NCBI GenBank assembly: GCA_036479435.1
Contig: JAZGFI010000229.1
Location: 1-11,905, forward strand
Source: Planctomycetota bacterium
Lineage (GTDB): Bacteria; Planctomycetota; GCA-002687715; DRQF01
DNA: 11,905 nt
Direction of reading: 5' to 3'
The notes beneath the pieces are model-generated. The model searched no databases. It was not told the origin of the DNA and saw only the letters and a program-made list of their open reading frames with translations. Shown here piece by piece: positions 1 through 11,905 of the stretch (the first letter of the stretch is position 1; the number at the start of each line of letters is the position of its first letter). Made by a program: the position numbers and the translations under genes.

Positions 1-32
1 ACGCCCATTACAAATTCGCTATCGTTACTCAT
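1..32 (-). CDS. 5' start of a gene running off the left edge (MSNDSEFVMG(V)...); product unknown, N-terminus compatible with a ROK/ASKHA sugar kinase
   Basis: ATG at 32-30 (minus strand), GGAG Shine-Dalgarno at 43-40 and an open frame to the window edge. 'FVMGV' resembles the hydrophobic strand preceding the D-x-G motif of ASKHA kinases, but only about 10 codons are visible. Confidence 0.5.
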   Translation of the reverse strand, partial: MSNDSEFVMG

Positions 33-73
33 GGCCGGTCTCCGTTTTTGTTTTGAGAAAAACACTGAGCCCC

Positions 74-95
74 ATTTTAGGTGAGCTCGACGACG
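74..95 (-). promoter_or_regulatory. Putative promoter of the left-edge gene: -10 hexamer TAAAAT with an upstream CGTCGT element 10 nt away
   Basis: The minus strand reads CGTCGT-CGAGCTCACC-TAAAAT, about 40 nt upstream of the ATG at 32. The -10 is a 5/6 consensus match and there is no canonical -35. Confidence 0.35.
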
Positions 96-117
96 GAGGC
101 CGGCCCTCTCATCTCAT

Positions 118-153
118 CTGGCACCGGATAGTGACGGCGTGGTGCCTGGCACC
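118..153. repeat. Short intergenic palindrome GGTGCC-T-GGCACC (141-153) with a second CTGGCACC copy (118-125)
   Basis: Seen directly in the sequence, immediately downstream of the stop codon of the 160-537 gene. Confidence 0.45.
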
Positions 154-159
154 CATGAT

Positions 160-537
160 TCAGTAAATTAGGGACTTTTCGAAGACTTCGTCGAAGTCAA
201 AACCGTTGGCGAAGTCTTCTTTGGTGTCGGTGTCTTGTTTGGCGAGGAGCTCGACTTGGATCATCGAGAAGACGATTTCGCCGAAGTCCTCGGTGCGGGA
301 GATTCCCCAGAGGCGAAAGACCGACTTGGTGAGGAAGCCAAACATCTGCTCAGCGTAGTCGCGAATGCCCTCGCAAAGCTCACCGCCATTGATATGGCCA
401 AGGCGGCCTTTCTTGCGGAATGAGGCCAGGGTGTAGTTGAGGGCTTCGAGAGTGAAGTCGTAGGCCTCACCGCGATAGCGTCCATCTTCTTGAACCAATT
501 GGTAGATGAGGTCGGCTTTATCTTGGCCATGGCTCAT
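160..537 (-). CDS. Minf_1886 / TIGR04138-like conserved protein of PVC bacteria, function unknown (125 aa)
   Basis: Characteristic motifs DxRY..EAYxF..EAL.YT, HIxGxELCEGIRxYA..xFG, WGIxxTEDFGEIVF and DxxEDFxxGFDFDEVF. The ATG at 537 is preferred over the GTG at 570 because a GGGGAGGG RBS lies just upstream. Confidence 0.85.
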   Translation of the reverse strand: MSHGQDKADLIYQLVQEDGRYRGEAYDFTLEALNYTLASFRKKGRLGHINGGELCEGIRDYAEQMFGFLTKSVFRLWGISRTEDFGEIVFSMIQVELLAKQDTDTKEDFANGFDFDEVFEKSLIY

Positions 538-646
538 TCTTAGCGCCCTCCCCAGAGTGCAAACCGACACAGAAGCGCGTTCCCTCTGCCGACGGAAGCG
601 AGGCTTCCTCTTCTATTCAACACCATGGGGAGACATCTGCCAAGTC

Positions 647-1579
647 TCAAGGAGATGATTCGCGTCGGCGCTTGCTGGCAAGGCGGCGCTGAATCTTGAT
701 CTTCAAAGACTCGACGACGATTCGAGGAGAGACGTTCGCACTGAGTCGGTTTTTGGCGTCGAGAAGGTCAGCAATGGTCTCAGCGTCATGGTCGAGACCC
801 CATGGGCTTTGATCTTGAGCAAGCGACTCGATGGCGAATTCGAAAAGGCGGCGGCAGCGCTGCCTTGCTTTGGCCGCGACCCGCATACCGCTGGATTGGA
901 AAAACTCATCGGCGAAGGCAAAGGGCCCGGGGCGGGGACCGAGGAGGGCTGGGACCAGTGCCATCAGATCCCGCGAAGACGCATCCGAGAGCCAGGCGAG
1001 CGCCGCCCCCGGGGCCCCTCGAGACAAAGACAGGGCCGTGGCGGCTTCCTTTTCCCCAACGCCGAGACGTTGAGCAATAAACTGCTCGGCATCGGCCCCG
1101 AACACGGGGCCAAAAAACACCGATTGAAGCCGCGAGTGAATCGTCTCCAACAAAGCACCTGGCTCATGGGTCACTAAGATGATCAAGCCATTTCGTGGAG
1201 GCTCTTCCAAGAGCTTGAGGAGTGAATTTTGGGCCTCAACTGCCAAGCAGTGCGCGTCTGCGATGAGGGCCGCCTTGCGGTCGGCCTGGTAAGGAGCCAA
1301 CGCGAACCACTTCTTAAGGTCACGCAAACGTGCGATGGGAATGGTGGTTTTGCCTTCCTCTGGCGCCAAGAGCTCAACGTCGGGGTGGTTCTCAAGGGAG
1401 GGACCGCCTGCAAACAATGACGACAAAAGTTCGGTGGCGAACAGCTTCTTGCCACGTCCGCTCTCGCCGTGAAACAAAAAGCCGGGAGGAACGCGCCCGT
1501 GGGACAGGACACCTCGAAAAAACTGCTTGGGGCCCGCGTGACCGACAACTCGAGAAAAGTCCGGCTCGGGCGAGCTCAC
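647..1579 (-). CDS. holB: DNA polymerase III subunit delta' (clamp loader AAA+)
   Basis: Motifs VVGH, FLFHGESGRGKK (degenerate Walker A), NHPDV, AQNSLLKLLEEPP, LLETIHSRLQ and GAPGAAL. The GTG start overlaps the TGA of the upstream DnaA-like gene (GTGA). Confidence 0.9.
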   Translation of the reverse strand: MSSPEPDFSRVVGHAGPKQFFRGVLSHGRVPPGFLFHGESGRGKKLFATELLSSLFAGGPSLENHPDVELLAPEEGKTTIPIARLRDLKKWFALAPYQADRKAALIADAHCLAVEAQNSLLKLLEEPPRNGLIILVTHEPGALLETIHSRLQSVFFGPVFGADAEQFIAQRLGVGEKEAATALSLSRGAPGAALAWLSDASSRDLMALVPALLGPRPGPFAFADEFFQSSGMRVAAKARQRCRRLFEFAIESLAQDQSPWGLDHDAETIADLLDAKNRLSANVSPRIVVESLKIKIQRRLASKRRRESSP

Positions 1580-2931
1580 GAGTCGCCGAACGGCGACGAG
1601 CCGGTGCGGCGGTTGGCAAGTCTGGTCATGAGGTCACACAAGGCGGCGTCGCTTTGGATTTCACCGCGATAGCGATTGTAGATCAGATGGATCGACGTGT
1701 GGCTACGGTCACCTAAGATGCGACCGATCTCTTTGAAAGTCAGTTGGTGCTGATCTCGCAACACACAAACGACGACGCCCCGCGGAAGCCGCAGAGACTT
1801 CACCTTGCGTTTCGAGAGTAAGGCACTTCGCGTCACGCCAAAATGTTCCGCCGATGCTTTGATGATCGACTCGTACTCACTGCCCCGCGACGCCCCGAAC
1901 AGATCGCCGCGGTGTTTGGCAATAAACTCGGGCGTCACCGGCTCGCGTAGCAACGCGGCGTAAGCGTGAATGCGCAAAATGCATCTTTTCAAAAGGCCCA
2001 AGCTGCCGTGACAATCCGCGACCAGAGCTTTCAAGACATCTTCGCGAAGAGGTTTGCGGTCGGGGCCTAAGCCCTGGCTCATGATCTTTACCAAGGAACT
2101 GTGCGAGTAGGGTCGGATCTCCACGACAAGTCCCGCGTGCAGCTGAGATTGAAATGGCTGCGAAACATTTTCGATTTCTTGGGGACGATGGCGTGACGCC
2201 ATGGCCACCTGCTTGCCCGATTCCAACCACTCTTTTAGCCGTGCGACAAATTCAACTTGAGTCGCCTTTTTGCCTCGAAAGCGATGAACCTCATCGACGA
2301 CGATGACACCAAAACCATCGTAGAAGCTACGGAATTGATCGACGGTCTTCATCTTCAGCGCCATCGTAAAGTGCGACGTGAACTGAAGGGCATCCGTGAC
2401 CAGCACTTTCGGCGCGTCCTCGCCATCTAGCTGCGCCTGGGTGCGAAAGCAGCGGACAAGATGAGTCTTGCCCAAGCCCGACGGTGCGGCCAAGAAAATA
2501 GGATTGAAGGTCGGCTCTTGGCGCTGAACCGCGTGCCGAATGGCCCGCCATGCGAATTCGTTTTCTGGAACGACAAAGAAGCTGTCGAGGTCGGCATCTT
2601 TGTCAACCGCAGGTGTGGCGTCCAAAACGTCCATGACTTCTTCAGCGCTGATATTCTCGCGGTGCTTTCGGTAGAGTTCAGGGTCGACTTTGACTTCGAC
2701 TTTGATGGCCGTACCCAGAACACGATTCGCGGCGCGGCCAATCATGCGCCCGTAGCGCTCGTCGATGAAATCTCTAAAAAAGAGATTCGGAACGCCGATC
2801 GTCAACGTCCCGCGGTAGAGGTTTTTGAGCAGAACCTCGCGAAACCAGATCTCGTAGGTACGCGATCCGATTTCTGTTTCGACGAGAGACAGAATCTCTC
2901 GGAAGCTTTTGACGGCGAGGCGGTCGGCCAT
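1576..2931 (-). CDS. dnaA: DnaA-family protein (divergent paralogue of the chromosomal replication initiator), 451 aa
   Basis: Full DnaA architecture: domain I (YEIWF...LTIGVPNLFFRDFIDERY), AAA+ (DSFFVVPENEFA, FNPIFLAAPSGLGKTHL, IVVDEVH, GKKATQVEF) and domain IV (FGVT..LLSKRK, PR, TFKEIGRILGDRSHTSI). Several catalytic residues are divergent and there is no dnaN next to it, so it is probably not the main initiator. Confidence 0.85.
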   Translation of the reverse strand: MADRLAVKSFREILSLVETEIGSRTYEIWFREVLLKNLYRGTLTIGVPNLFFRDFIDERYGRMIGRAANRVLGTAIKVEVKVDPELYRKHRENISAEEVMDVLDATPAVDKDADLDSFFVVPENEFAWRAIRHAVQRQEPTFNPIFLAAPSGLGKTHLVRCFRTQAQLDGEDAPKVLVTDALQFTSHFTMALKMKTVDQFRSFYDGFGVIVVDEVHRFRGKKATQVEFVARLKEWLESGKQVAMASRHRPQEIENVSQPFQSQLHAGLVVEIRPYSHSSLVKIMSQGLGPDRKPLREDVLKALVADCHGSLGLLKRCILRIHAYAALLREPVTPEFIAKHRGDLFGASRGSEYESIIKASAEHFGVTRSALLSKRKVKSLRLPRGVVVCVLRDQHQLTFKEIGRILGDRSHTSIHLIYNRYRGEIQSDAALCDLMTRLANRRTGSSPFGDS

Positions 2932-2937
2932 AGGGTG

Positions 2938-5787
2938 CTATCGGGTTTCTTGTTCGGCTTGTTTTTCGGCTTTTCGGAGAAGCGACTTCGCCTCACCATT
3001 CTTCGGATCAACTTCCAACACGCGCCCGAGATGGTAGGCAGCTTGATCAGTTTCGCCAAGGTGCATCAGCACCTTCGCGAGTTCAAACCTGACTTTGATC
3101 TCAGCCGTACCGCTTAGTCCCAAGTCCAACGCGGTCTCGAATTCTACGCCAGCCTGCTTCCAATCGTCCAGCCCTTTCGCGAGTTCGGCGCGCTGTTCAT
3201 AAATCCTCGGATCAAAAGGACTGACTCTTGCAATCTCATCGAGAAGAGTCCGCGATTTTTGCCATTCTTTTTTTTGCTTTCGAAACTCAAAAAGTTCCCA
3301 GCGTGCTTCCACCGCAACATCGACCAAGGCACAGAAACGCTCCGTCCATGCGGCCCAAGCATCGAGGTCGCCCTCGCCTCGTGCCAATCGAGCCAAATTC
3401 AGATAGGGACTCGCCTTGGGGTCGGCAAGGAAAGGATTCGCAATGGCGGCGCGGCGCCAATACTCGATCGCTTCAACGCTCTTTCCGGCTTTTTCAGCGA
3501 AACCCGCCAGCAGTGCGAACAACTCAAAATCCTCGAAACCGGAATTTTCGGCACTCGCAAAGTACTTGGCGGCAACATCTAAGCGCTTTGCCCGTACCGC
3601 CCTCAATCCGAACAGAAAGTCGATCCTGGGGTCTTTGACGCCAGCGCGGTTCAGTTTTTGCAACACGGCGTCGGCATCGAAATCTCGGCCATGCCTAAAG
3701 TGACCCCAAGCCAACTTGATACGGTTTTCGTCGACATCTTCATTATTCGCGATAGCGTCGCGAAAGCGGTCCAGGGCGGTTTCGGAGTAGCGCGGCATGC
3801 GCTTCAAGGAGCCGAGGTGTTTCTCCACAAAGTTACGAAAGCCCTTGTCGAATTCCTGTGGAGAAACTCCGAGGGCCTCACGTAACACGGCGCGGCTGTG
3901 CTTGTCCTCGCCGTAGAGCCGCAACATTTTTTGGATCGCCTCCATGCCCCAATTTTTCTCTAACCACTGCGAGCAAAGCCCGGCCTGAAAATAGGCAAAT
4001 ACGATGGCCGAAGTGCTGAAGGCCTTGTCGAACTCCAAGACCCCTAGTAATTCGTCGCTCGCCCAGGCATCGTGAAGGAGAGATTCAAGATTTCTTCCCC
4101 AGGAGGGATCGCGGCGAACTTCTTCCCATGACGAAAGGCCTTCAGTGAGCCAGCGCGGCACCCGGCCGCCGCTGAGCTGAAGCGTGAAGACGTGGGCGAT
4201 CTCGTGATGCGCGGTGCCCGCCCAATTATAAGTGCCAGGGCGGCGAGCCCTGGGGCTATCCATCGCCACGGTCGATCCAAAACACACTCCGAGAGCGGGA
4301 AGCCCTCGCGTGCCCATCGTCCGCACCGAAAAGTCCTTCGATCGGCGAAACACTTCGAAGATAATCGGGGCTTTCGGCGTGAAGCCGTAGCGTTTCACGA
4401 GTTCGTCCCAACTACGCTCGATGAAGGCCGGAAAGATCCGTTCGAGTAGGGGTCGATCCGTCTTGTGTAGTTTCAAGACGTAGTGCGGGGTCAAGGTCGT
4501 CTCGTAGCTCTTTTCCAACAGCCCCAAGACGGTGTACATGTTGTTGCGCCACACGTTGCCGTAGCGCACCAGACTGTCGGCTTTTTTGAGCGCCGCGCGC
4601 CCTTCTTTTTCTTCCCCGATGTAAATGGCGTAGCGCGCAAGGTCATCCCAAAGACGAAAGTTCGCGGGGTCGACCTTGACCGCCTCCCTCATAACCCCCA
4701 AGGCTTCTTCCCAACGCCTGCGATCGTTGAGGGCGTCGGCGATATAGCGAAAAAGTTGACCGTAGGTTGGATCTCGTTGAAGGATACGCCCCTTCAGCTC
4801 ATCAAAGACTGCGGTCTTGCCTTCGAGCCAGGCTTTCGACGCTAGCCCGGACAAGCAGGCGAGGTGGTCGGGATTGGCGGTGAGGCCCGCGCGAAAAGTC
4901 TGCTCTGCCTGTTGCCATTGAGCATCCCCGAGTTCATTCATTCCGCGCATCGCCAAGGCATCGGGGTGATGGGGATTGGTGTTTAGGACGCGTTCGATCA
5001 GGTTGATCCGCTCGCCCTCAGCCTGCCCGAGGCGCAAGGCAGCGGCACGAGCCTGCCCGAGCAAAAACCCCGGCCAGTTCTTGCGCAGTGCCAAAGCGTC
5101 TTTGAACTCGCGCTTCATGTCCGACGGACGTTCCTTGAGCCCGCCGTAGACCTCGGCCAACTCGACAAAGGCCGGCAGGTACTTCGGATCGGCCTTCTGC
5201 GCCGAGACCAGCGCTTCTTCGGCGTAGTCGCCGCCATGGGGGTAGAAGCGATAGGCCCGCGCCAAAGCAGTCAGGTCGGCCGCCCCCCGAACGACCTGGG
5301 ATTTCGCCTTTTCGACGATCGCGCTATGAAGCTTCTCAGCTTCAGCGTCGCGCCCGCGATTCAGATGAATCTGCGCGATGCGGCCGGGCACCTGGTACTT
5401 CGAAAGCTCCGGATCTTCGACCCTCGCCAAGAGTTCGAGGGCATCATCATCTCGCCCCTTTACTCGCAAGAACTCAAGGTGGTCGCAGATTCGATTCCAG
5501 TCGCGCGGTTTCTCTTTGAGCCTGGCCGCGCTCAACTCCCCGTAGCGTTCGTACTGTCCGGTCGCGAACAGAGCCAACAGCAGCTTCGGCGCCACATCTT
5601 CGTCATCCGGCTCTGCGGCGAGGACTCTCTCGAAGTACTTTGCCGCAAGTCGCCACTGACCTCGCGAGTAGCTGCGCTCAGCGCGTTCGTACCAACGGTC
5701 GATATCCTCTTCGGACTGACCCAAAACCGGTACGGAGTTGATACTTAGCAAGGTCAAGATTGTCAGGGCAAAAACGGCTGCGCGCAT
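2938..5787 (-). CDS. Exported TPR-repeat protein with a central HEXXH (gluzincin / peptidase MA-like) domain, 949 aa
   Basis: Sec-type signal peptide (MRAAVFALTILTLLSINSVPVLG-Q) and many TPR-like helices ending in DP/NP. HEIAH (4192-4206) is followed by PRWLTEGLS and a downstream AYFQA motif. Confidence 0.85.
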   Translation of the reverse strand: MRAAVFALTILTLLSINSVPVLGQSEEDIDRWYERAERSYSRGQWRLAAKYFERVLAAEPDDEDVAPKLLLALFATGQYERYGELSAARLKEKPRDWNRICDHLEFLRVKGRDDDALELLARVEDPELSKYQVPGRIAQIHLNRGRDAEAEKLHSAIVEKAKSQVVRGAADLTALARAYRFYPHGGDYAEEALVSAQKADPKYLPAFVELAEVYGGLKERPSDMKREFKDALALRKNWPGFLLGQARAAALRLGQAEGERINLIERVLNTNPHHPDALAMRGMNELGDAQWQQAEQTFRAGLTANPDHLACLSGLASKAWLEGKTAVFDELKGRILQRDPTYGQLFRYIADALNDRRRWEEALGVMREAVKVDPANFRLWDDLARYAIYIGEEKEGRAALKKADSLVRYGNVWRNNMYTVLGLLEKSYETTLTPHYVLKLHKTDRPLLERIFPAFIERSWDELVKRYGFTPKAPIIFEVFRRSKDFSVRTMGTRGLPALGVCFGSTVAMDSPRARRPGTYNWAGTAHHEIAHVFTLQLSGGRVPRWLTEGLSSWEEVRRDPSWGRNLESLLHDAWASDELLGVLEFDKAFSTSAIVFAYFQAGLCSQWLEKNWGMEAIQKMLRLYGEDKHSRAVLREALGVSPQEFDKGFRNFVEKHLGSLKRMPRYSETALDRFRDAIANNEDVDENRIKLAWGHFRHGRDFDADAVLQKLNRAGVKDPRIDFLFGLRAVRAKRLDVAAKYFASAENSGFEDFELFALLAGFAEKAGKSVEAIEYWRRAAIANPFLADPKASPYLNLARLARGEGDLDAWAAWTERFCALVDVAVEARWELFEFRKQKKEWQKSRTLLDEIARVSPFDPRIYEQRAELAKGLDDWKQAGVEFETALDLGLSGTAEIKVRFELAKVLMHLGETDQAAYHLGRVLEVDPKNGEAKSLLRKAEKQAEQETR
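3819..3867. repeat. Perfect 11-bp inverted repeat GTTTCTCCACA-N27-TGTGGAGAAAC inside the TPR gene
   Basis: Arms at 3819-3829 and 3857-3867. Each arm contains TTCTCCACA, one mismatch from the DnaA box TTATCCACA. The repeat is directly visible; its function is unproven. Confidence 0.5.
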
Positions 5788-5902
5788 GAAGTCAGGCTCG
5801 GCTCAAGGAACTCGGGGAGCGTTCGAACCAACAGGATAAGGAACGATGAGCCAAGGTGGAAGCTCGACTTTTATTGTCGCAAACAGTCCGAGATGAAGAT
5901 TA

Positions 5903-6889
5903 CTATCCCAAGGAATCTTGGAGGCGCTTGATTTCGGCCGCGAGGGCGCTGCGGTACTCACCCGGCGACTCGATGAAGGCCTCTGGGCCTAGAGTCAAAA
6001 GATAGCGGGCAATGGCTTTCGGACGGGAAGTCGACAGCGTGAGGGTTAGAGTCTCACCTTTTTTGTCCCAGCTCCATTGCGTTTGGTCCAGAGTCTCAGC
6101 GATGTGTCGGGCGGACGCGCCGGTGGCCTTGATGACAACTTCAGTTTCGTCTTGGCCTCGGCTCGAGAAAATTCCCGCGCGAGTAAACTCTTCGAGATCA
6201 AAATCAGGATCGGCCTCGAACGTTTCTTCCAAAAGCTGTGCGCTATCGATGCGATCCAGGCGAAAAGACACGGTGTGCCCTCGGCGCTGGTCCCAACTTG
6301 GGACGTAGGTGACGCCGTTTTGAACCACGATACCTTGCGGGTGCACGATGCGTACCCGCAGGCGATCCTCTCCACCGGAGAGGTAGGCAATTTCTGCCTT
6401 GTGCCGTTTCGCGATAGCGATTTTCAAGAGCGCTAAAATGGGAGAGGACGCTTCGGGGTTGTCGTCAATGCTCACCCGCTCTGATTCGCGCAGGAACACC
6501 CGCTGCTGCTCGGGCAGGGCCTTCTCGATCTTCTCACGCAAAGCGGAGATGCGCGCTTCCACTCGGGCGTCGCGCCCCCCCGGAAACCAAGAAGACGCAA
6601 GCGCCAAATGAAGCGCGGTGATCTCGATCGGCAATAGGGTCACGGGCCGTTTGAAGTGGTCTGCAAAACTGCAGTGAACTTCATCGCCTTCCATCCAAAT
6701 GCTCACGTAGTCGTGAGGCATGTAGGGAGGCGCTCCGCACAACATCAGAGTCGGAATCAGCTGGTCCACAATGGTCTTTTCGCTGAATCCACTTCGTTTG
6801 GAGAGTTCCGCGAGTTTGATTCCGGGATTCTCACGCACCAAGGGCACGAGATCCAAGCAGCGCAATACGGTCTCAAGCGACAGATTCAC
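5903..6889 (-). CDS. pafC: PafC-like HTH-WYL-WCX transcriptional regulator
   Basis: PafC-specific N-terminal signature LMLCGAPPYMPHDYVSI (actinobacterial LWMCGLPGY.PGDLIDF) and FKRPVTLLPIEITALHLAL. WYL domain R.VHP...TYV..W......FRLDRI and WCX end LLTLGPEAFIESP. The GTG start overlaps the pafB stop. Confidence 0.85.
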   Translation of the reverse strand: MNLSLETVLRCLDLVPLVRENPGIKLAELSKRSGFSEKTIVDQLIPTLMLCGAPPYMPHDYVSIWMEGDEVHCSFADHFKRPVTLLPIEITALHLALASSWFPGGRDARVEARISALREKIEKALPEQQRVFLRESERVSIDDNPEASSPILALLKIAIAKRHKAEIAYLSGGEDRLRVRIVHPQGIVVQNGVTYVPSWDQRRGHTVSFRLDRIDSAQLLEETFEADPDFDLEEFTRAGIFSSRGQDETEVVIKATGASARHIAETLDQTQWSWDKKGETLTLTLSTSRPKAIARYLLTLGPEAFIESPGEYRSALAAEIKRLQDSLG

Positions 6890-7953
6890 GTGCGCAACTC
6901 CGCCTGATAGTGAGCGGCGTGGCGAGCGACGTGATCTTTCATGACTTTGCGAATCGACTTCGGTTCCAAGATCTCAACGTCGGGTCCCAACGAGAGCAAC
7001 CAGTCCGCCATTTTCTCCGGCGCCTTGGCTGACAAGACAAGCGTTGAACTCTGCGCCTCATCGTCGTCTTCGCTGGCATCTACAAATTTGAAGTGCAGCC
7101 GCGACTGATGCCTCAATTGAAGCGCGAGGTCGCGGGGAACGCGGATTTTAACTTCTGTGGGGTCAACGTCCCCAAAGTCCCAAGCTTCCCGAAACAAATG
7201 ATCTTCGATGCGAAATCCCTTGGGAACTTCGAATTCGAAACTGGCGTCCGACGCTCCGGTCAACGCTACGGCCCCCACGACTCGGGAGAGACGAAACATG
7301 CGTGTCCCCTCACGGTCGTGATCGAATCCGACGAGATACCACTCGCCGCGATCGATGCCGAGTCCGTAGGGGTCAACACGACGCTTTTGAGGATCGGTGT
7401 CTTGGCGGCCGCGGTAAGAAAAACGAATCGTCCGCCGGGAGTAGACGGCGGCGCAAATGGTCTGCAACAGCTCCGCAACTTTGGCGTGTCCAGAACTGAC
7501 CTGTAGCAAGCTCGCGCGCTCCGCCGGAACCTCGCCGATCTCGGGAGCGTCGACGGCAAGCTTGCGCAGGGCAGAGGCAAAGGCCTCCTTCATGATCGGG
7601 CTGCTCATTGCGACCGCCCCACTGCGGCCAGCCATCGACAAGATGACCGCGTCCACGGTGTCCAACTTGATCTCGCCCAAGAAAAAGCGATCGAGGGGAA
7701 TGATGTAACCCGAGGCTTCGGGACTTCCGCCGTCGATATACTCGACCGGAATTCCCATGTTTCTCAACTCAGCCTTGTCGCGGTCAAACCGTTTTTCAAT
7801 GGAATCGAGCCGCGCTTCGTCGTCATAACCGACGACATGTCCGGCAATCTTGGAAAAGGGAATCGGACGGCGCGAACGAAGCATGAACGAAATGAGGTTC
7901 AGCAAGCGTTCGGTCTTCGAAACTTTGACCTGACCCGTGGAGCTGGGGTCCAT
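6886..7953 (-). CDS. pafB: PafB-like HTH-WYL-WCX transcriptional regulator
   Basis: PafB signature SKTERLLNL...VVGY...KRFDRDKAELRNMGIPVE (mycobacterial SKVERLVNL...VAGY...RMFERDKNELRDLGIPLE) and ALRKL. WYL domain RRVDPYGL...GEWYLVGFDHDR..RMFRLSRV and WCX end WLLSLGPDVEILEP. GGAAGG RBS upstream of the ATG. Confidence 0.9.
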   Translation of the reverse strand: MDPSSTGQVKVSKTERLLNLISFMLRSRRPIPFSKIAGHVVGYDDEARLDSIEKRFDRDKAELRNMGIPVEYIDGGSPEASGYIIPLDRFFLGEIKLDTVDAVILSMAGRSGAVAMSSPIMKEAFASALRKLAVDAPEIGEVPAERASLLQVSSGHAKVAELLQTICAAVYSRRTIRFSYRGRQDTDPQKRRVDPYGLGIDRGEWYLVGFDHDREGTRMFRLSRVVGAVALTGASDASFEFEVPKGFRIEDHLFREAWDFGDVDPTEVKIRVPRDLALQLRHQSRLHFKFVDASEDDDEAQSSTLVLSAKAPEKMADWLLSLGPDVEILEPKSIRKVMKDHVARHAAHYQAELRT

Positions 7954-7971
7954 GCCGATTACCTTCCGAGT

Positions 7972-8008
7972 ATTCTAACGACGAGCCGCATCCACGTGAT
8001 GCTGTCAA
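7972..8008 (-). promoter_or_regulatory. Putative pafBC promoter region: -10 TAGAAT (7977-7972), TTGACA (8008-8003) and an intervening palindrome
   Basis: A near-consensus -10 lies 18 nt upstream of the ATG. A perfect TTGACA is 25 nt further upstream (non-canonical spacing), with GCATC-N5-GATGC at 7988-8002 between them. Confidence 0.4.
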
Positions 8009-8148
8009 TTCCAAGGCGAAGGCCAACGCCAGCAAGGTGCCGGGAAAGTTGACGGTCTTGGGGGGCAGCCGAGGGAGAAACCCACGAACGGCAGAACGCC
8101 CGTTTTACCCGCAGGTTACCCTAGCCGCAAGCGTCGGTTAAACCCCAG

Positions 8149-8736
8149 CTAGGCCGGAGTGGCGGCCAGTCCCATCGCAGCCCGCACCTCTTTTTTGAGG
8201 GCGATGATGTCGAGCGGCTTCTTGACCACGCGCAGACCCTCTTTTTCAAGTTCGCCAACGCCTTGGTCCTCAAGGTAACCGGTCATGATAATGACACTCA
8301 TTTCCTTTAGCTGATCGACGCCCTTGATGGTCTCGACCACCTCGTAGGCGGTGGTGTCACCAAGGTTGTAGTCAATGAGCAGCAGAGTTGGCCGGATGCG
8401 CATGGTCTCGAAACCGGCTTGATAGCCCCCGGTGGCAACCTGGACGTCGAGGTCGCCGTCTTTTTCGAACAGCTCAGCGAGGCTGCGCACGAGTTTTTCA
8501 TCATCGTCCGCAATAAGCAGCTTGGGACGGCTATCAAAGAGCCGCTGATCAAAGGGGATCTTGTGCTCAACGAGGAACCTCAACAGAGCTTCCTTCGGGA
8601 TTCGACGGTCTTTGGACGCCGGAATCTTGTAGCCTTCGAGCTTGCCCGCTTCGAACCACTTAATCACCGTACGAATCGTGACTTGGCAGATCTTGGCGAC
8701 CTGACCCGTCGTAAAGACGTCTTTTCGCGTCGTCAC
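8149..8736 (-). CDS. Response regulator with N-terminal excisionase/MerR-like HTH (HTH_17) and C-terminal receiver domain
   Basis: VFTTGQVAKICQVTIRTVIKWFEAGKLEGYKIP.SKDRRIP is a typical planctomycete HTH. Receiver motifs are intact: LIADDD, LLLID (phospho-Asp), IMTG and KP. GGAG RBS before the GTG. Confidence 0.9.
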   Translation of the reverse strand: MTTRKDVFTTGQVAKICQVTIRTVIKWFEAGKLEGYKIPASKDRRIPKEALLRFLVEHKIPFDQRLFDSRPKLLIADDDEKLVRSLAELFEKDGDLDVQVATGGYQAGFETMRIRPTLLLIDYNLGDTTAYEVVETIKGVDQLKEMSVIIMTGYLEDQGVGELEKEGLRVVKKPLDIIALKKEVRAAMGLAATPA

Positions 8737-8874
8737 GGACTAAATATCTCCCCAGGGGACTCCGGCGCGGAGTTCTCGACAACAAGTTAGGCGCATGCGG
8801 GCCCAGCCCAGTGTAGGTCAAATTTCAGGTCCGCCCCAAGATTCTCTGCCGCTTTCGGCGCCACCCCCCCTATC

Positions 8875-8890
8875 TTTGCATCGTTGCAAA
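8875..8890. promoter_or_regulatory. Palindrome TTTGCA-TCGT-TGCAAA, candidate operator in the divergent intergenic region
   Basis: Perfect 6-bp arms, AT-rich relative to background, lying between the regulator gene and the tRNA promoter. Confidence 0.3.
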
Positions 8891-8940
8891 CCCCCGTGGG
8901 CTGGTCTCTTGGCAACTTTAAGACAAAAGCGCCACTTCCC

Positions 8941-8977
8941 TTGACTCGCCCCAAACCCCGCGTCAGAATGCGCGCGC
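8941..8977 (+). promoter_or_regulatory. Sigma70-type tRNA promoter
   Basis: TTGACT (8941-8946), 17-nt spacer, CAGAAT (8964-8969), then a GC-rich discriminator GCGCGCGC typical of stable-RNA promoters. Confidence 0.8.
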
Positions 8978-8980
8978 TTT

Positions 8981-9054
8981 GGGCGTATAGCTCAGCTGGC
9001 TAGAGTGCCACGTTGACATCGTGGAGGTCCCTGGTTCGAGCCCAGGTACGCCCA
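8981..9054 (+). tRNA. tRNA-Val(GAC)
   Basis: Cloverleaf: acceptor GGGCGTA/TACGCCC, D arm GCTC/GAGT, anticodon stem CCACG/CGTGG with loop TTGACAT (GAC at 9015-9017), T arm CCTGG-TTCGAGC-CCAGG and discriminator A. CCA is not encoded. Confidence 0.97.
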
Positions 9055-9058
9055 CTCC

Positions 9059-9100
9059 AGAAGGTTCCAGCCCGTAAGGGTTTGGAGCCTTCTTTCGTTT
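9059..9100 (+). terminator. Hairpin downstream of the tRNA, probable intrinsic terminator
   Basis: AGAAGGTTCCAGCCC-GTAA-GGGTTTGGAGCCTTCT stem with a GNRA loop, followed by the T-rich TTCGTTT. Confidence 0.7.
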
Positions 9101-9279
9101 GAAATGGCCGAGTTGGCCGGAAGCGCGCTTTGCCCCAGGGCCGGTCTGTTAAGGTTCGCCAGTGCTGCCTCAAGCGGGCCACAGGACACAAAGCGACTGA
9201 GTTCGGGGCACCCCGTCTCTAAGAAGAAGTTGGCGCCAGCCAGATGAAAGTTAGGTCTGGCCGGCGAGGAGGAAAAAGA

Positions 9280-10896
9280 ATGGTGGAACGACGCAGTTCG
9301 CGAAAATCAGGCCGAGACTCAGGCCGCGGCTCCCGATCCCGGCGACCGGCCAAGAAAAGCTCTTCCAATCCGGCCCTCATTTTCGGTGGTCTTGCAGGCG
9401 TCATCGCCCTGGGCGTCGCTGCTTTTTTCATTTTCGGCGGCGGCGACGAAGCCCAATCCGATGACAAAAAACTGAGCGCCAACGCCAAAAAAGAACAAGC
9501 GGCACTTCGCGAGCCGGCTGGTTCAGAAGAATCACTCTTCAGTGCGAGCACCGGGTCCGGCAACAAGAACGCCGAGAGCAAGAACAACGCAGCGACACCC
9601 GAGAATTCAGAGGCTCAAAAAATCGTCAAGCAGGAACCGAAAGAGCCCGTTCGAGAACGCGTCGTCGGTCGCGAACCCAAAAGTATTCCGGCCCTCGCAG
9701 AACTTCTTGAGATCAAGAATCGACTCTACGTGTCGACCGAGATCCGCGCCAAAATCGAAGCCACCAACCGGGAGGCATTAAAGTTCCGGACCGAGCGCTG
9801 GGACGTCACAAAAAAGATGATTCGCGCCGCCGAAGCCCTAAAGAAGCAGGCCCGCAAGGATAAGCGCGACCCCTTTCTTTCGGAGGCTGACACTCTCTTC
9901 AAGCGGCTCAACACTCGGATGACGAAGAGCGATCTGCACAAAAAAGACAGCAGCGGAAACCTCTTCGATGAGCCTTTCATCGGCTACATCGATGAGCCCT
10001 ACGCGATCTACGTCCAGCAGAGCCAAGACGTCGATGAGATCGCCTTCGCCAAAAAAACGGTGGCCGAACTAAAAGCGCTCCGCACAGCCTTCGTCGACTT
10101 CTTTGGCGGCTTCATCGACCTCGAGAAGAAAAAGAAAAAGCACGCGGTCAAAGTTCTGTTGCTCAGCAACTCGAAAGAGTACCAGTCTTACAACCGCATT
10201 CGAAACCCCGAGCAAGACCTCACCGGCGCCCTCGCCCATTACCAGCCCAAAGACGGCCTACTGGTAAACCCGATGAAGTTTAGAACCTCAAGTAATGAAG
10301 ACGCCGAGCACAAACGCCGCGAGGTCATCTTCCACGAGGGAACTCACCAGCTCCTCGACTACTATACGGGCCAAAACCACCTGTCATCTTTCGGCGCCAT
10401 GTGGTCGGACGAAGGGGTCGCCGAGTACTTCGCCGGACACTTCATGGATGACGCGGGCACCGTTCACTTTGGCCGCATGAATCATCGCATCTCCGCTTTG
10501 GAAGGCATGTTCGGGCAATCGAGGAGGTTGCCCCTTCGCAAGTTTCTAAAGCACACGCGCTACATGACCGACAAGCTCAAAAAAGAGGGCAAGGTCAATG
10601 AGTCCCGACTGCTTCAAAACGCGGTCTACGCGCAGGGTTGGGCGCTCGTCTACTTCATGAACAATTGGCACAACGGCTACTACAAAAAACAGTTCCAAGC
10701 CATCATGAAGAAGCAGATCGAAGACGGCGACGCGGGCTTAGTCCCTTTCAACTGGATCTTTCCGAAAGACGACTTCGACAAGCTTGAAGTCGAGTTCGAG
10801 GACTATCTCAATCACCTCGCCACCGCTCGCAAGGCGGGCAAGATCAGCAAAGAAGGGGTCATCGCGGACAACGACGACAAGTCTGACGAGGGCTAA
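9280..10896 (+). CDS. Membrane-anchored DUF1570-like HEXXH metallopeptidase-fold protein
   Basis: Arg/Ser-rich N-terminus, one TM helix (ALIFGGLAGVIALGVAAFFIFGG) and a low-complexity linker. These are followed by HEGTHQL (HEGTH at 10333-10347), WSDEGVAEYF and YAQGWALVYF. The ATG at 9280 follows an AGGAGG RBS; an alternative ATG is at 9244. Confidence 0.8.
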   Translation: MVERRSSRKSGRDSGRGSRSRRPAKKSSSNPALIFGGLAGVIALGVAAFFIFGGGDEAQSDDKKLSANAKKEQAALREPAGSEESLFSASTGSGNKNAESKNNAATPENSEAQKIVKQEPKEPVRERVVGREPKSIPALAELLEIKNRLYVSTEIRAKIEATNREALKFRTERWDVTKKMIRAAEALKKQARKDKRDPFLSEADTLFKRLNTRMTKSDLHKKDSSGNLFDEPFIGYIDEPYAIYVQQSQDVDEIAFAKKTVAELKALRTAFVDFFGGFIDLEKKKKKHAVKVLLLSNSKEYQSYNRIRNPEQDLTGALAHYQPKDGLLVNPMKFRTSSNEDAEHKRREVIFHEGTHQLLDYYTGQNHLSSFGAMWSDEGVAEYFAGHFMDDAGTVHFGRMNHRISALEGMFGQSRRLPLRKFLKHTRYMTDKLKKEGKVNESRLLQNAVYAQGWALVYFMNNWHNGYYKKQFQAIMKKQIEDGDAGLVPFNWIFPKDDFDKLEVEFEDYLNHLATARKAGKISKEGVIADNDDKSDEG

Positions 10897-11035
10897 CGCT
10901 CAACCCGATGGGCCGGGGTGAAGGGAGTCGTCAGGGCTTTCTTCGCTCTCAAGGCAAATCGAGCGGGCTTTTTTGAAAATCTTCGCATGCCCTTTCCGAC
11001 TTCAGGTCGGTACGCAGAATTCATAGAGACTGAGT

Positions 11036-11608
11036 ATGAACCCCATCGATATTGCCGCGATCATCCTCATCGGCTTCAACCTCATCCTGGGGTTGATGCG
11101 CGGCGCCGTCCCGCAGGTCATCAAGATCCTCTCCATCATCCTCGGAGTGTGGGCCGCGATGCGCTACGGAGAGGTTTTTCGCGACAACTTGCCCGCAAGT
11201 TTCGGCCTCAGTGATTCCGCGGGCCTGATCATCGCGCAGATCGTGCTCTTCATGTCGATCTACTTGGTCATGTTCGGAATATCGCATCTCATGCGAAAAC
11301 TGATTCAAAAGGCCGAGTTGCGGTCGATGGATCGGGTCTTAGGCGGGTTGTTGGGAGCGGCTAAAGGCATCATCTACTGCTGCGTGCTGCTCTACTTGCA
11401 GTTCATTCCCTTCATCACTGAAATCACGGGCGTCAAAAAACAGCTCTACGGCTCCGAGGCCAAGAATATTGATGGCTCCATCGCCAACCGCATCTTTATT
11501 TCTTACCTCAAGGATCGCATCGACAGCACGATACCTGACGACCTCTCAAAGAAAGTCGACAACTTCGTCGATGATGCCGACCGCGTCGTCCGCCCCAAGC
11601 CTAAGTAA
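11036..11608 (+). CDS. cvpA: CvpA (colicin V production) family membrane protein
   Basis: MNPIDIAAII...GLMRG, four hydrophobic segments and the DRVLGGLLGAAKG signature. Confidence 0.9.
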   Translation: MNPIDIAAIILIGFNLILGLMRGAVPQVIKILSIILGVWAAMRYGEVFRDNLPASFGLSDSAGLIIAQIVLFMSIYLVMFGISHLMRKLIQKAELRSMDRVLGGLLGAAKGIIYCCVLLYLQFIPFITEITGVKKQLYGSEAKNIDGSIANRIFISYLKDRIDSTIPDDLSKKVDNFVDDADRVVRPKPK

Positions 11609-11644
11609 GCGCCGCTGAAAGCCGCGAATTTGCTTTACAACCCA

Positions 11645-11905
11645 CTAATTGCTCGTAAGCCCTTTGAGCTGCTCATCGAGGTAAGCGCCGTAGACCACGC
11701 GATCCTTTTCGGTCTTGATCGACTCCAGCCTCGATTGCGCCTCTAAGTAGAGTTCTTTTGATCGCGCAAGATTACCGGCACGTTGGCGCCACATATCGGC
11801 GCGACTGATCAGCAAAGACACTTTCTGCGAAACGCTGATGGGGTCAGACAAGGGGTCGGCCGCGGCCCAGATATCATCGGCTCGCGCCCAGTTTTTCGCG
11901 TAAAG
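11645..11905 (-). CDS. 3' end of a gene entering from the right edge; helical, possibly TPR-like, unknown function
   Basis: The frame of the 11645-11851 ORF stays open to the window edge (LYAKNWARADDIWAAADPLSDP...AGNLARSKELYLEA...) and ends at TAG, convergent with cvpA. Confidence 0.65.
   Translation of the reverse strand, partial: LYAKNWARADDIWAAADPLSDPISVSQKVSLLISRADMWRQRAGNLARSKELYLEAQSRLESIKTEKDRVVYGAYLDEQLKGLTSN

Follow-up and report, generated by a model that had tools for sequence, protein, structure and literature searches.

A second DnaA of planctomycetes with an altered ATPase domain and a possible part in the control of initiation

Why should a planctomycete with a canonical dnaA maintain a second, full-length copy in which several residues of the AAA+ domain have been replaced? 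The question is raised by dnaA2, a gene on contig JAZGFI010000229.1 of the Planctomycetota assembly GCA_036479435.1; the window is the whole stretch analysed (positions 1 to 11,905; 11,905 nucleotides) and the source genome is termed G000. dnaA2 is a real, conserved and apparently undescribed variant of DnaA, and its product probably controls the true initiator rather than starting replication.

The paralogue and its altered AAA+ domain

The gene and the parts of its product, DnaA2, are as follows (coordinates in the window; ISM, initiator-specific motif):

1576..2931 (-): dnaA2, a full-length four-domain DnaA paralogue of 451 amino acids (P0001), from the open reading frame, Pfam, TIGR00362, phmmer, AlphaFold2 and Foldseek
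2728..2904 (-): domain I, residues 10-68; G22, R40 and G41 are specific to the clade
2464..2487 (-): Walker A, residues 149-156, APSGLGKT; Lys or Arg in 47/47 clade sequences
2365..2388 (-): acceptor-side ISM, residues 182-189; L182, S186 and T189 in place of Bacillus subtilis E183, N187 and I190
2329..2331 (-): R201, which corresponds to R202 of B. subtilis in the donor half of the base-capture pocket; Arg in 44/47
2290..2307 (-): Walker B, residues 209-214, VIVVDE; first acid in 47/47, second acid Glu in 28/47
2251..2271 (-): K221-E227 (KKATQVE), corresponding to K222 and E228 of B. subtilis; K/R in 44/47, E in 45/47
2191..2193 (-): R247 at the sensor I position (Escherichia coli D269); Arg in 40/47
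2131..2157 (-): box VII, residues 259-267; P259 for R281 and Q263 for the arginine finger R285, with S262 and G267 kept
1984..2004 (-): start of the sensor II helix, residues 310-316; G312 for R334, L313 for E335 and R316 for the invariant G338
1690..1872 (-): domain IV helix-turn-helix, residues 354-414; changed base-reading residues K376, K400 and S410, plus L416 just beyond, with H411 and T412 kept

A full-length DnaA paralogue had been proposed from the sequence alone (the original prediction), and this description stands. The Pfam families DnaA_N, Bac_DnaA and Bac_DnaA_C all score above their cut-offs, placing DnaA domains I, III and IV in the product; the AlphaFold2 model (mean predicted local distance difference test, pLDDT, of 83.5 from a 20-row alignment) has DnaA secondary structure, and a Foldseek search with it ranks DnaA structures first (E 5e-19 against 8btg). 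With these domains and this fold DnaA2 belongs to the DnaA family by descent, and with the initiator model TIGR00362 it scores 243.4 bits, below the cut-off of 343.9.

Three alignments, by MAFFT with E. coli K-12 DnaA (L042), by phmmer with B. subtilis DnaA (8btg) and by profile-profile comparison with 18 canonical planctomycete DnaAs (hhalign probability 100), agree on a gap-free register in which G172, D269, R281, R285 and R334 of E. coli become A149, R247, P259, Q263 and G312. The roles of D269, R334, R281, R285 and R227 in DnaA are set out in PMC4245941 (here and below, articles are cited from the part of their text that was available). R316, which might have been taken for the missing Arg, pairs in all three alignments with G338, one helical turn past sensor II, and not with R334; the sensor II helix of the model begins at residue 311, and in the alignments no Arg falls at the finger or the sensor II position.

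These positions were compared across 47 clade sequences, comprising 31 genomic sequences and 16 database representatives after three representatives duplicating genome rows had been excluded; the counts include some near-duplicates, and kin are not independent. The predicted loss of both box VII arginines is seen as P259 and Q263 in every alignment and extends through the clade, with Arg at the finger in 4/47 and at R281 in 3/47; Arg at the AID-1 position R227 occurs once (1/47), and G338 is found in 0/47. The finger position holds V, L, N, Y, I or Q and, because it drifts in this way, looks released from constraint. The members that keep the finger are P0013, L128 (G046), L130 (G054) and P0020, and P0013 has sensor II as well, together with the sensor I Arg. 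Three other predicted changes are real in the window protein and can be refined: A149 in Walker A is nearly private to this protein (G in 45/47); the replacement of R334 by G312 at sensor II is not clade-wide, as Arg persists in 12/47; and the sensor I Asp, kept in 3/47, has not simply been lost, a strongly conserved Arg (40/47) standing in its place. Walker A and Walker B are retained, as had been noted, with the Walker A Lys or Arg and the first Walker B acid in all 47 sequences. In the comparison sets, the other planctomycete second DnaAs keep finger and sensor II in 17/17, and the canonical copies keep the finger in 27/28 and sensor II in 28/28.

Given the conserved sensor I Arg, the nucleotide pocket may have been rebuilt and need not be dead. 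An Arg placed immediately behind strand 4 senses the gamma-phosphate in the STAND NTPases (multidomain signal-transducing ATPases), which are mostly without sensor II (PMC2323615), and by analogy R247 is possibly a phosphate sensor in cis; since this Arg, Walker A and the first Walker B acid are all conserved, the pocket may sense ATP in cis. It could be asked whether DnaA2 then still works as a second initiator through a remodelled oligomer interface, in which R247 or R316 replaces the lost Arg. The second copies of other planctomycete families, with finger and sensor II in place, would be in keeping with this, as would Arg at the R316 position in 18/47 clade sequences. However, neither R247 nor R316 is in box VII, both being on the pocket side, R316 is not conserved, and finger and ISM mutants of several DnaAs do not separate strands (PMC8287927), from which it follows, as had been claimed, that DnaA2 cannot unwind an origin alone; the idea fits poorly and seems very improbable.

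A conserved clade beside the canonical initiator

The canonical dnaA expected elsewhere in the genome (dnaA1) is present on contig C235, where it precedes dnaN and gyrB; it retains D269, R285, R334, R399, D433 and H434, and its product is 24% identical to DnaA2. A PF00308 search of G000 finds two full DnaA genes and six further matches in frames of 253-276 amino acids, and at least two DnaA matches occur in about 210 of 301 genomes of the phylum (counted by eye; some are split genes). Neither Hda nor YabA (PF06156) gave a match above cut-off in any of five genomes (G000, G012, G043, G046 and G109). The dnaN-linked dnaA of G017 (L087) reads ASNRPP and VNLFQWG and seems to be without both D269 and the finger, and a 237-amino-acid open reading frame of G000 (L010, contig C292) encodes a stand-alone DnaA domain IV protein amid phage-like small genes.

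The neighbours of dnaA2 in the window are:

160..570 (-): Minf_1886 family gene, at the end of the conserved run
647..1579 (-): holB (clamp loader delta'), its start overlapping the dnaA2 stop; tmk intervenes outside the window's family
2938..5787 (-): tetratricopeptide repeat (TPR) / MA-clan peptidase gene, upstream neighbour in every fetched orthologous locus reaching that far
5903..7953 (-): pafB-pafC type WYL pair, upstream and in the same direction in the class, outside the wider conserved core
8149-8736 (-): regulator with an excisionase-type helix-turn-helix and a receiver, also present ahead of the run in G003, G004, G054 and G109
8981-9055 (+): tRNA-Val(GAC)

The conserved order is TPR/MA-peptidase, dnaA2, tmk, holB and Minf_1886, with tmk absent in the window's family. 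At least the TPR gene adjoins dnaA2 in 21 of 23 class genomes (three of these loci are cut by contig ends); of the remaining two, G018 has a partial match, and in G021, which is 76% complete, dnaA2 was not found. The same run is present in families f6, f21, f25, f28, f36 and f67. The TPR/MA-clan peptidase has 949 amino acids and an N-terminal hydrophobic leader, and its gene and that of Minf_1886 bracket dnaA2-tmk-holB across at least 10 families.

In trees (FastTree, 123 sequences; quick IQ-TREE search, 50 of those) the syntenic dnaA2 genes form a single clade (FastTree support 0.99, IQ-TREE 97-99), which lies amid other second copies of planctomycetes and is separate from dnaN-linked DnaA (FastTree 0.97-0.99, IQ-TREE 99); the position of three deep members is unsure because of their long branches. 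No base differs over dnaA2 in the contig sets of four runs from a single study where they cover the gene; two of the sets span it entirely, and these contigs may be the source of the window's DNA. The hosts are metagenome-assembled genomes, so genetics is not at hand.

Within genera, the ratio of nonsynonymous to synonymous substitution (dN/dS, by the NG86 method) is 0.04-0.38 for dnaA2 (10 of 12 pairs, dS being saturated in 2) and 0.03-0.17 for canonical dnaA (six pairs, linker included). The gene is maintained, with some relaxation: selection, which the original prediction had made a point of comparison, is purifying across orthologues, though somewhat relaxed in the AAA+ domain. Slow decay of a gene retained chiefly because it sits in the tmk-holB run would be consistent with branches longer than those of DnaA1, the drifting finger, dN/dS values of up to 0.38 and the orthologue of G003 (L013:2760-2900), which runs into the holB region via an apparent one-base frameshift at its extreme C-terminus, an assembly error or real. 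However, dN/dS is below 1 in all 10 computable pairs, full length is intact across the class and six more families, and new invariant residues have appeared; decay fits poorly and we consider it improbable.

One-sided retention and the proposed role

Two protomers of the B. subtilis origin complex form the base-capture pocket together, one with R202 and E228 and the next with N187 and E183, I190 flanking the pocket and K222 contacting the backbone (PMC10721633). The donor side is kept in the clade (R202-equivalent in 44/47, E228-equivalent in 45/47, K or R at 222 in 44/47) and the acceptor side is largely lost (N187 in 3/47, E183 in 18/47, an aliphatic residue at I190 in 12/47), so that of the complete pocket (E183, N187, I190, R202, K222 and E228) the donor half alone is present. 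The fold itself does not demand R202 and E228, because E. coli Hda is without equivalents of both (its register being less sure).

A predicted complex of the AAA+ domains of DnaA1 and DnaA2 with ATP and Mg scored 0.71, against 0.00 for the best of 3 controls; the mark set for this score is reached by 116 of 157 solved pairs and by 2 of 215 mismatched pairs. The runs share at least 75% of contacts, with a partner pLDDT of at least 84. In this model the box VII face of DnaA2 is docked on the ATP face of DnaA1 (Walker A, D294, R359, E360 and G363), and DnaA1 G363 (E. coli G338) packs on DnaA2 residues 267-269. The earlier suggestion of a filament cap or partner gains indirect support from the one-sided conservation together with this complex.

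Our tentative preference, held with considerable reserve, is for DnaA2 as a non-polymerising partner of DnaA1 that damps replication initiation, because the fold, Walker A and B, domains I and IV and selected donor-face residues are kept, because both box VII arginines, AID-1 R227 and most acceptor-face residues are lost, and because Hda and YabA gave no match above cut-off in the five genomes while dnaA2 holds a fixed place before tmk-holB. From the sequence facts, synteny, tree and selection, which are demonstrated, we infer the binding and regulatory steps as follows. The box VII face of DnaA2 would dock on the ATP-pocket face of DnaA1, the face that a protomer needs to join a filament. Lacking the finger, DnaA2 would neither stabilise ATP-dependent assembly nor trigger hydrolysis, and, G338 being replaced by a large residue and N187 and I190 being absent, no further subunit could be added to it; DnaA1 would be sequestered or filaments ended. 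The gamma-phosphate may be held in cis by R247, making a self-contained nucleotide switch, and in one family DnaA2 may be tethered to the replisome, instead of to DNA, by a C-terminal motif of the clamp type. A fuller version, of which we are doubtful, would have initiation control split between two DnaAs: a one-sided DnaA2 with a cis arginine sensor docks on the ATP face of the initiator to end or seed a filament, and one family has swapped reading of the DNA box for a clamp-binding tail, giving a role like that of Hda or YabA derived from a full-length initiator.

Several points weigh against a partner that damps initiation. As DnaA filaments have been solved, the predicted complex may be a memory of them, and it shows likeness rather than binding. 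The interface asymmetry is weak, mean identity being 0.39 on the donor face and 0.30 on the acceptor face, about the same as in the surrounding subdomains (0.37 and 0.30; the canonical DnaA faces have 0.68 and 0.60), and the donor-face positions A129, Y142, H230 and N233 have drifted. R201 and E227 could be retained for an internal salt bridge, and by alignment four clade members retain the finger, P0013 with sensor II too. Domain IV carries invariant residues of its own, which a pure sequestering factor would not need. Finally, the link to the clamp is putative. The C-terminus GQ(K/R)(L/M)LF, which would speak for the partner, is present in 7/47 clade sequences, all in one family-level subclade with a decayed recognition helix (six f25 genomes and one representative; L041, L059-L063, P0019), and resembles what we take to be the sliding-clamp consensus; in a scan of C-termini the motif was not at the end of the window protein P0001.

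The cap geometry could also serve the opposite end, with DnaA2 as a dedicated first protomer that binds its own origin box and seeds a DnaA1 filament on the DnaA-trios. The box-bound first protomer of B. subtilis uses domain IV, K222, R202 and E228, a set that DnaA2 keeps, and its finger faces away from the boxes (PMC10721633), which would leave its own ATP face free; canonical boxes are sparse next to dnaA1 in the class. However, the first protomer also donates the finger, which DnaA2 has lost, and neither an origin nor a DnaA2 box was identified, so that a seeding role seems unlikely.

The main rival to a damping partner is a stand-alone DNA-binding regulator, either a transcription factor, as the original prediction had also allowed, or a chromosome-organising protein; domain IV would recognise a new or less strict site, a new partner would bind to domain I, and the AAA+ domain would act as a nucleotide switch in cis or as a spacer. 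Domain I is conserved much as in DnaA1 (mean pairwise identity 0.37 among orthologues, 0.35 in canonical DnaA) and domain IV stands at 0.41 (canonical 0.55), whereas domain IIIa has 0.37 against 0.61. The DnaA box is read by six residues, R399, P423, D433, H434, T435 and H439 (named in PMC2533591 and PMC7561715), of which DnaA2 keeps two, H434 and T435; among the four changed, R399K (K376, 46/47) and D433S (S410, 43/47) are fixed in the new state. Judged from these residues, DnaA2 should bind DNA differently from DnaA1, and a sensor I Arg of the STAND type (PMC2323615) would suit the switch. However, no DnaA2 binding site was found, the single candidate fitting another consensus (below), families f25 and f6 keep dnaA2 although its recognition helix has decayed, and the donor-side single-strand residues are retained; a regulator of this kind is possible, if less persuasive than a damping partner.

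The candidate site, the 9-mer GGGGGGACA, was rejected as a DnaA2 box and is most likely a PafBC element, as it fits the PafBC consensus, tGTCgg(N10)tA(N3)T (PMC8635444), and tracks pafB. It is found beside the sigma-70 promoter of canonical dnaA in 7/7 genomes of the family and 0/10 other genomes of the order, lies in either orientation there (G000:C235:17192-17200; L072-L077), ends like a DnaA box and occurs 2-33 times per genome (14 genomes). Upstream of recA, GTC-N12-YA-N3-T is present in 20 of 21 class genomes (L345-L365), no other spacing between 8 and 17 occurring in more than 3; here the reverse of GGGGGGACA, TGTCCC, stands ten bases before TA-N3-T (20/21). The WYL gene of the window at 6886-7953 (-) matches mycobacterial PafB over its full length (E 8e-33). 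G046, from a family in which the pattern is enriched (40 against 9 in the control, 11 genomes), has pafB; in G043, G195, G024 and G109, all of which keep dnaA2, pafB was not found. The copies of GGGGGGACA at dnaA1 are without a PafBC -10 at the matching spacing; DNA-damage control of canonical dnaA through them is possible. Damage induction of dnaA2 was also rejected, no PafBC-type promoter being found upstream of pafB or the TPR gene at the five or six loci checked. PafBC-type elements also precede ruvA and dnaE in G000, and ssb and an MrfA-like helicase gene in relatives, and a PafB/PafC pair with an apparent regulon outside Actinobacteria suggests sigma adaptation in planctomycetes.

An open reading frame of about 24 hydrophobic residues between an IHF-like (integration host factor) gene and mutS2 is always preceded by TGTCCCCCC, exact or with one mismatch (L221, L224, L226, L227, L228, L292, L295, L297 and L299). 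The gap between lptB and an HD-GYP response regulator (G000:C53:3121-3454; L169, L172-L193) is the sole 400-base stretch of G000 with three DnaA-like boxes, and in several family genomes it contains a conserved palindrome-like element and TGTCCCCCC. It was not accepted as oriC, as the gap has 92 bases without boxes in some relatives; it may be an origin or a regulated promoter.

Comparison with known systems

A description of this clade was not found in the literature searched (subscription journals lay outside its coverage), and the Planctopirus essentiality study (PMC10632474) mentions no dnaA in the main article, while the available text of its supplements has Plim_0001 under COG0593 and gave nothing on a second dnaA copy; databases label the relatives DnaA, AAA ATPase or hypothetical. 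Canonical DnaA (TIGR00362; PDB 8btg, 2hcb, 2z4r) has the four domains, fold, Walker A and B and helix-turn-helix in common with DnaA2, which, unlike it, is without the finger, R281, R227, the sensor I Asp, G338 and the acceptor-side ISM residues, has changed base-reading residues and does not lie beside dnaN. The other Planctomycetota second DnaAs (17 sampled) share 'xHP' following sensor I and 'xGM' following box VII, but keep the finger, sensor II, E183 and mostly D269, N187 and G338, as DnaA2 does not. Likeness to the chlamydial paralogues (NF009087) was judged by profile score alone, DnaA2 reaching 128 bits against a cut-off of 657; chromatin immunoprecipitation of the DnaAs of Waddlia (DnaA1/DnaA3) yielded no usable targets according to the available text of PMC4989314. 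The STAND NTPases (Apaf-1 and NOD-like receptors) have the Arg after strand 4 in an hhh-x-S/A-R context and generally miss sensor II (PMC2323615), whereas DnaA2 has the fold and domains of DnaA; the likeness concerns one motif and is presumably convergent.

The closest functional parallels are with proteins that restrain DnaA. Hda/HdaA (regulatory inactivation of DnaA; TIGR03420) is a DnaA-derived AAA+ protein thought to dock on the ATP face of DnaA, and DnaA2 scores 58 bits against its cut-off of 194.8; Hda keeps the finger and is without domains I and IV, while DnaA2 is the reverse, with both domains and no finger. A putative clamp-type motif is found in one DnaA2 family and is missing from the C-terminus of the window protein. 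YabA of Bacillus binds DnaA domain III and the clamp and is encoded after tmk-holB; its non-catalytic role as a brake may be likened to that proposed for DnaA2, and the neighbourhood is similar, with no homology between the two. DnaA2 bears on how bacteria of the PVC (Planctomycetes-Verrucomicrobia-Chlamydiae) group use two dnaA genes where, as in the five genomes examined, neither Hda nor YabA was detected. In this clade a full-length initiator has lost one of its working faces, as a DNA-binding domain of altered specificity, a new sensor Arg and, in one family, a clamp-type tail became fixed. Whether as brake or as seed, the paralogue can be tested in vitro, and it adds to Hda and YabA a candidate third way of restraining DnaA.

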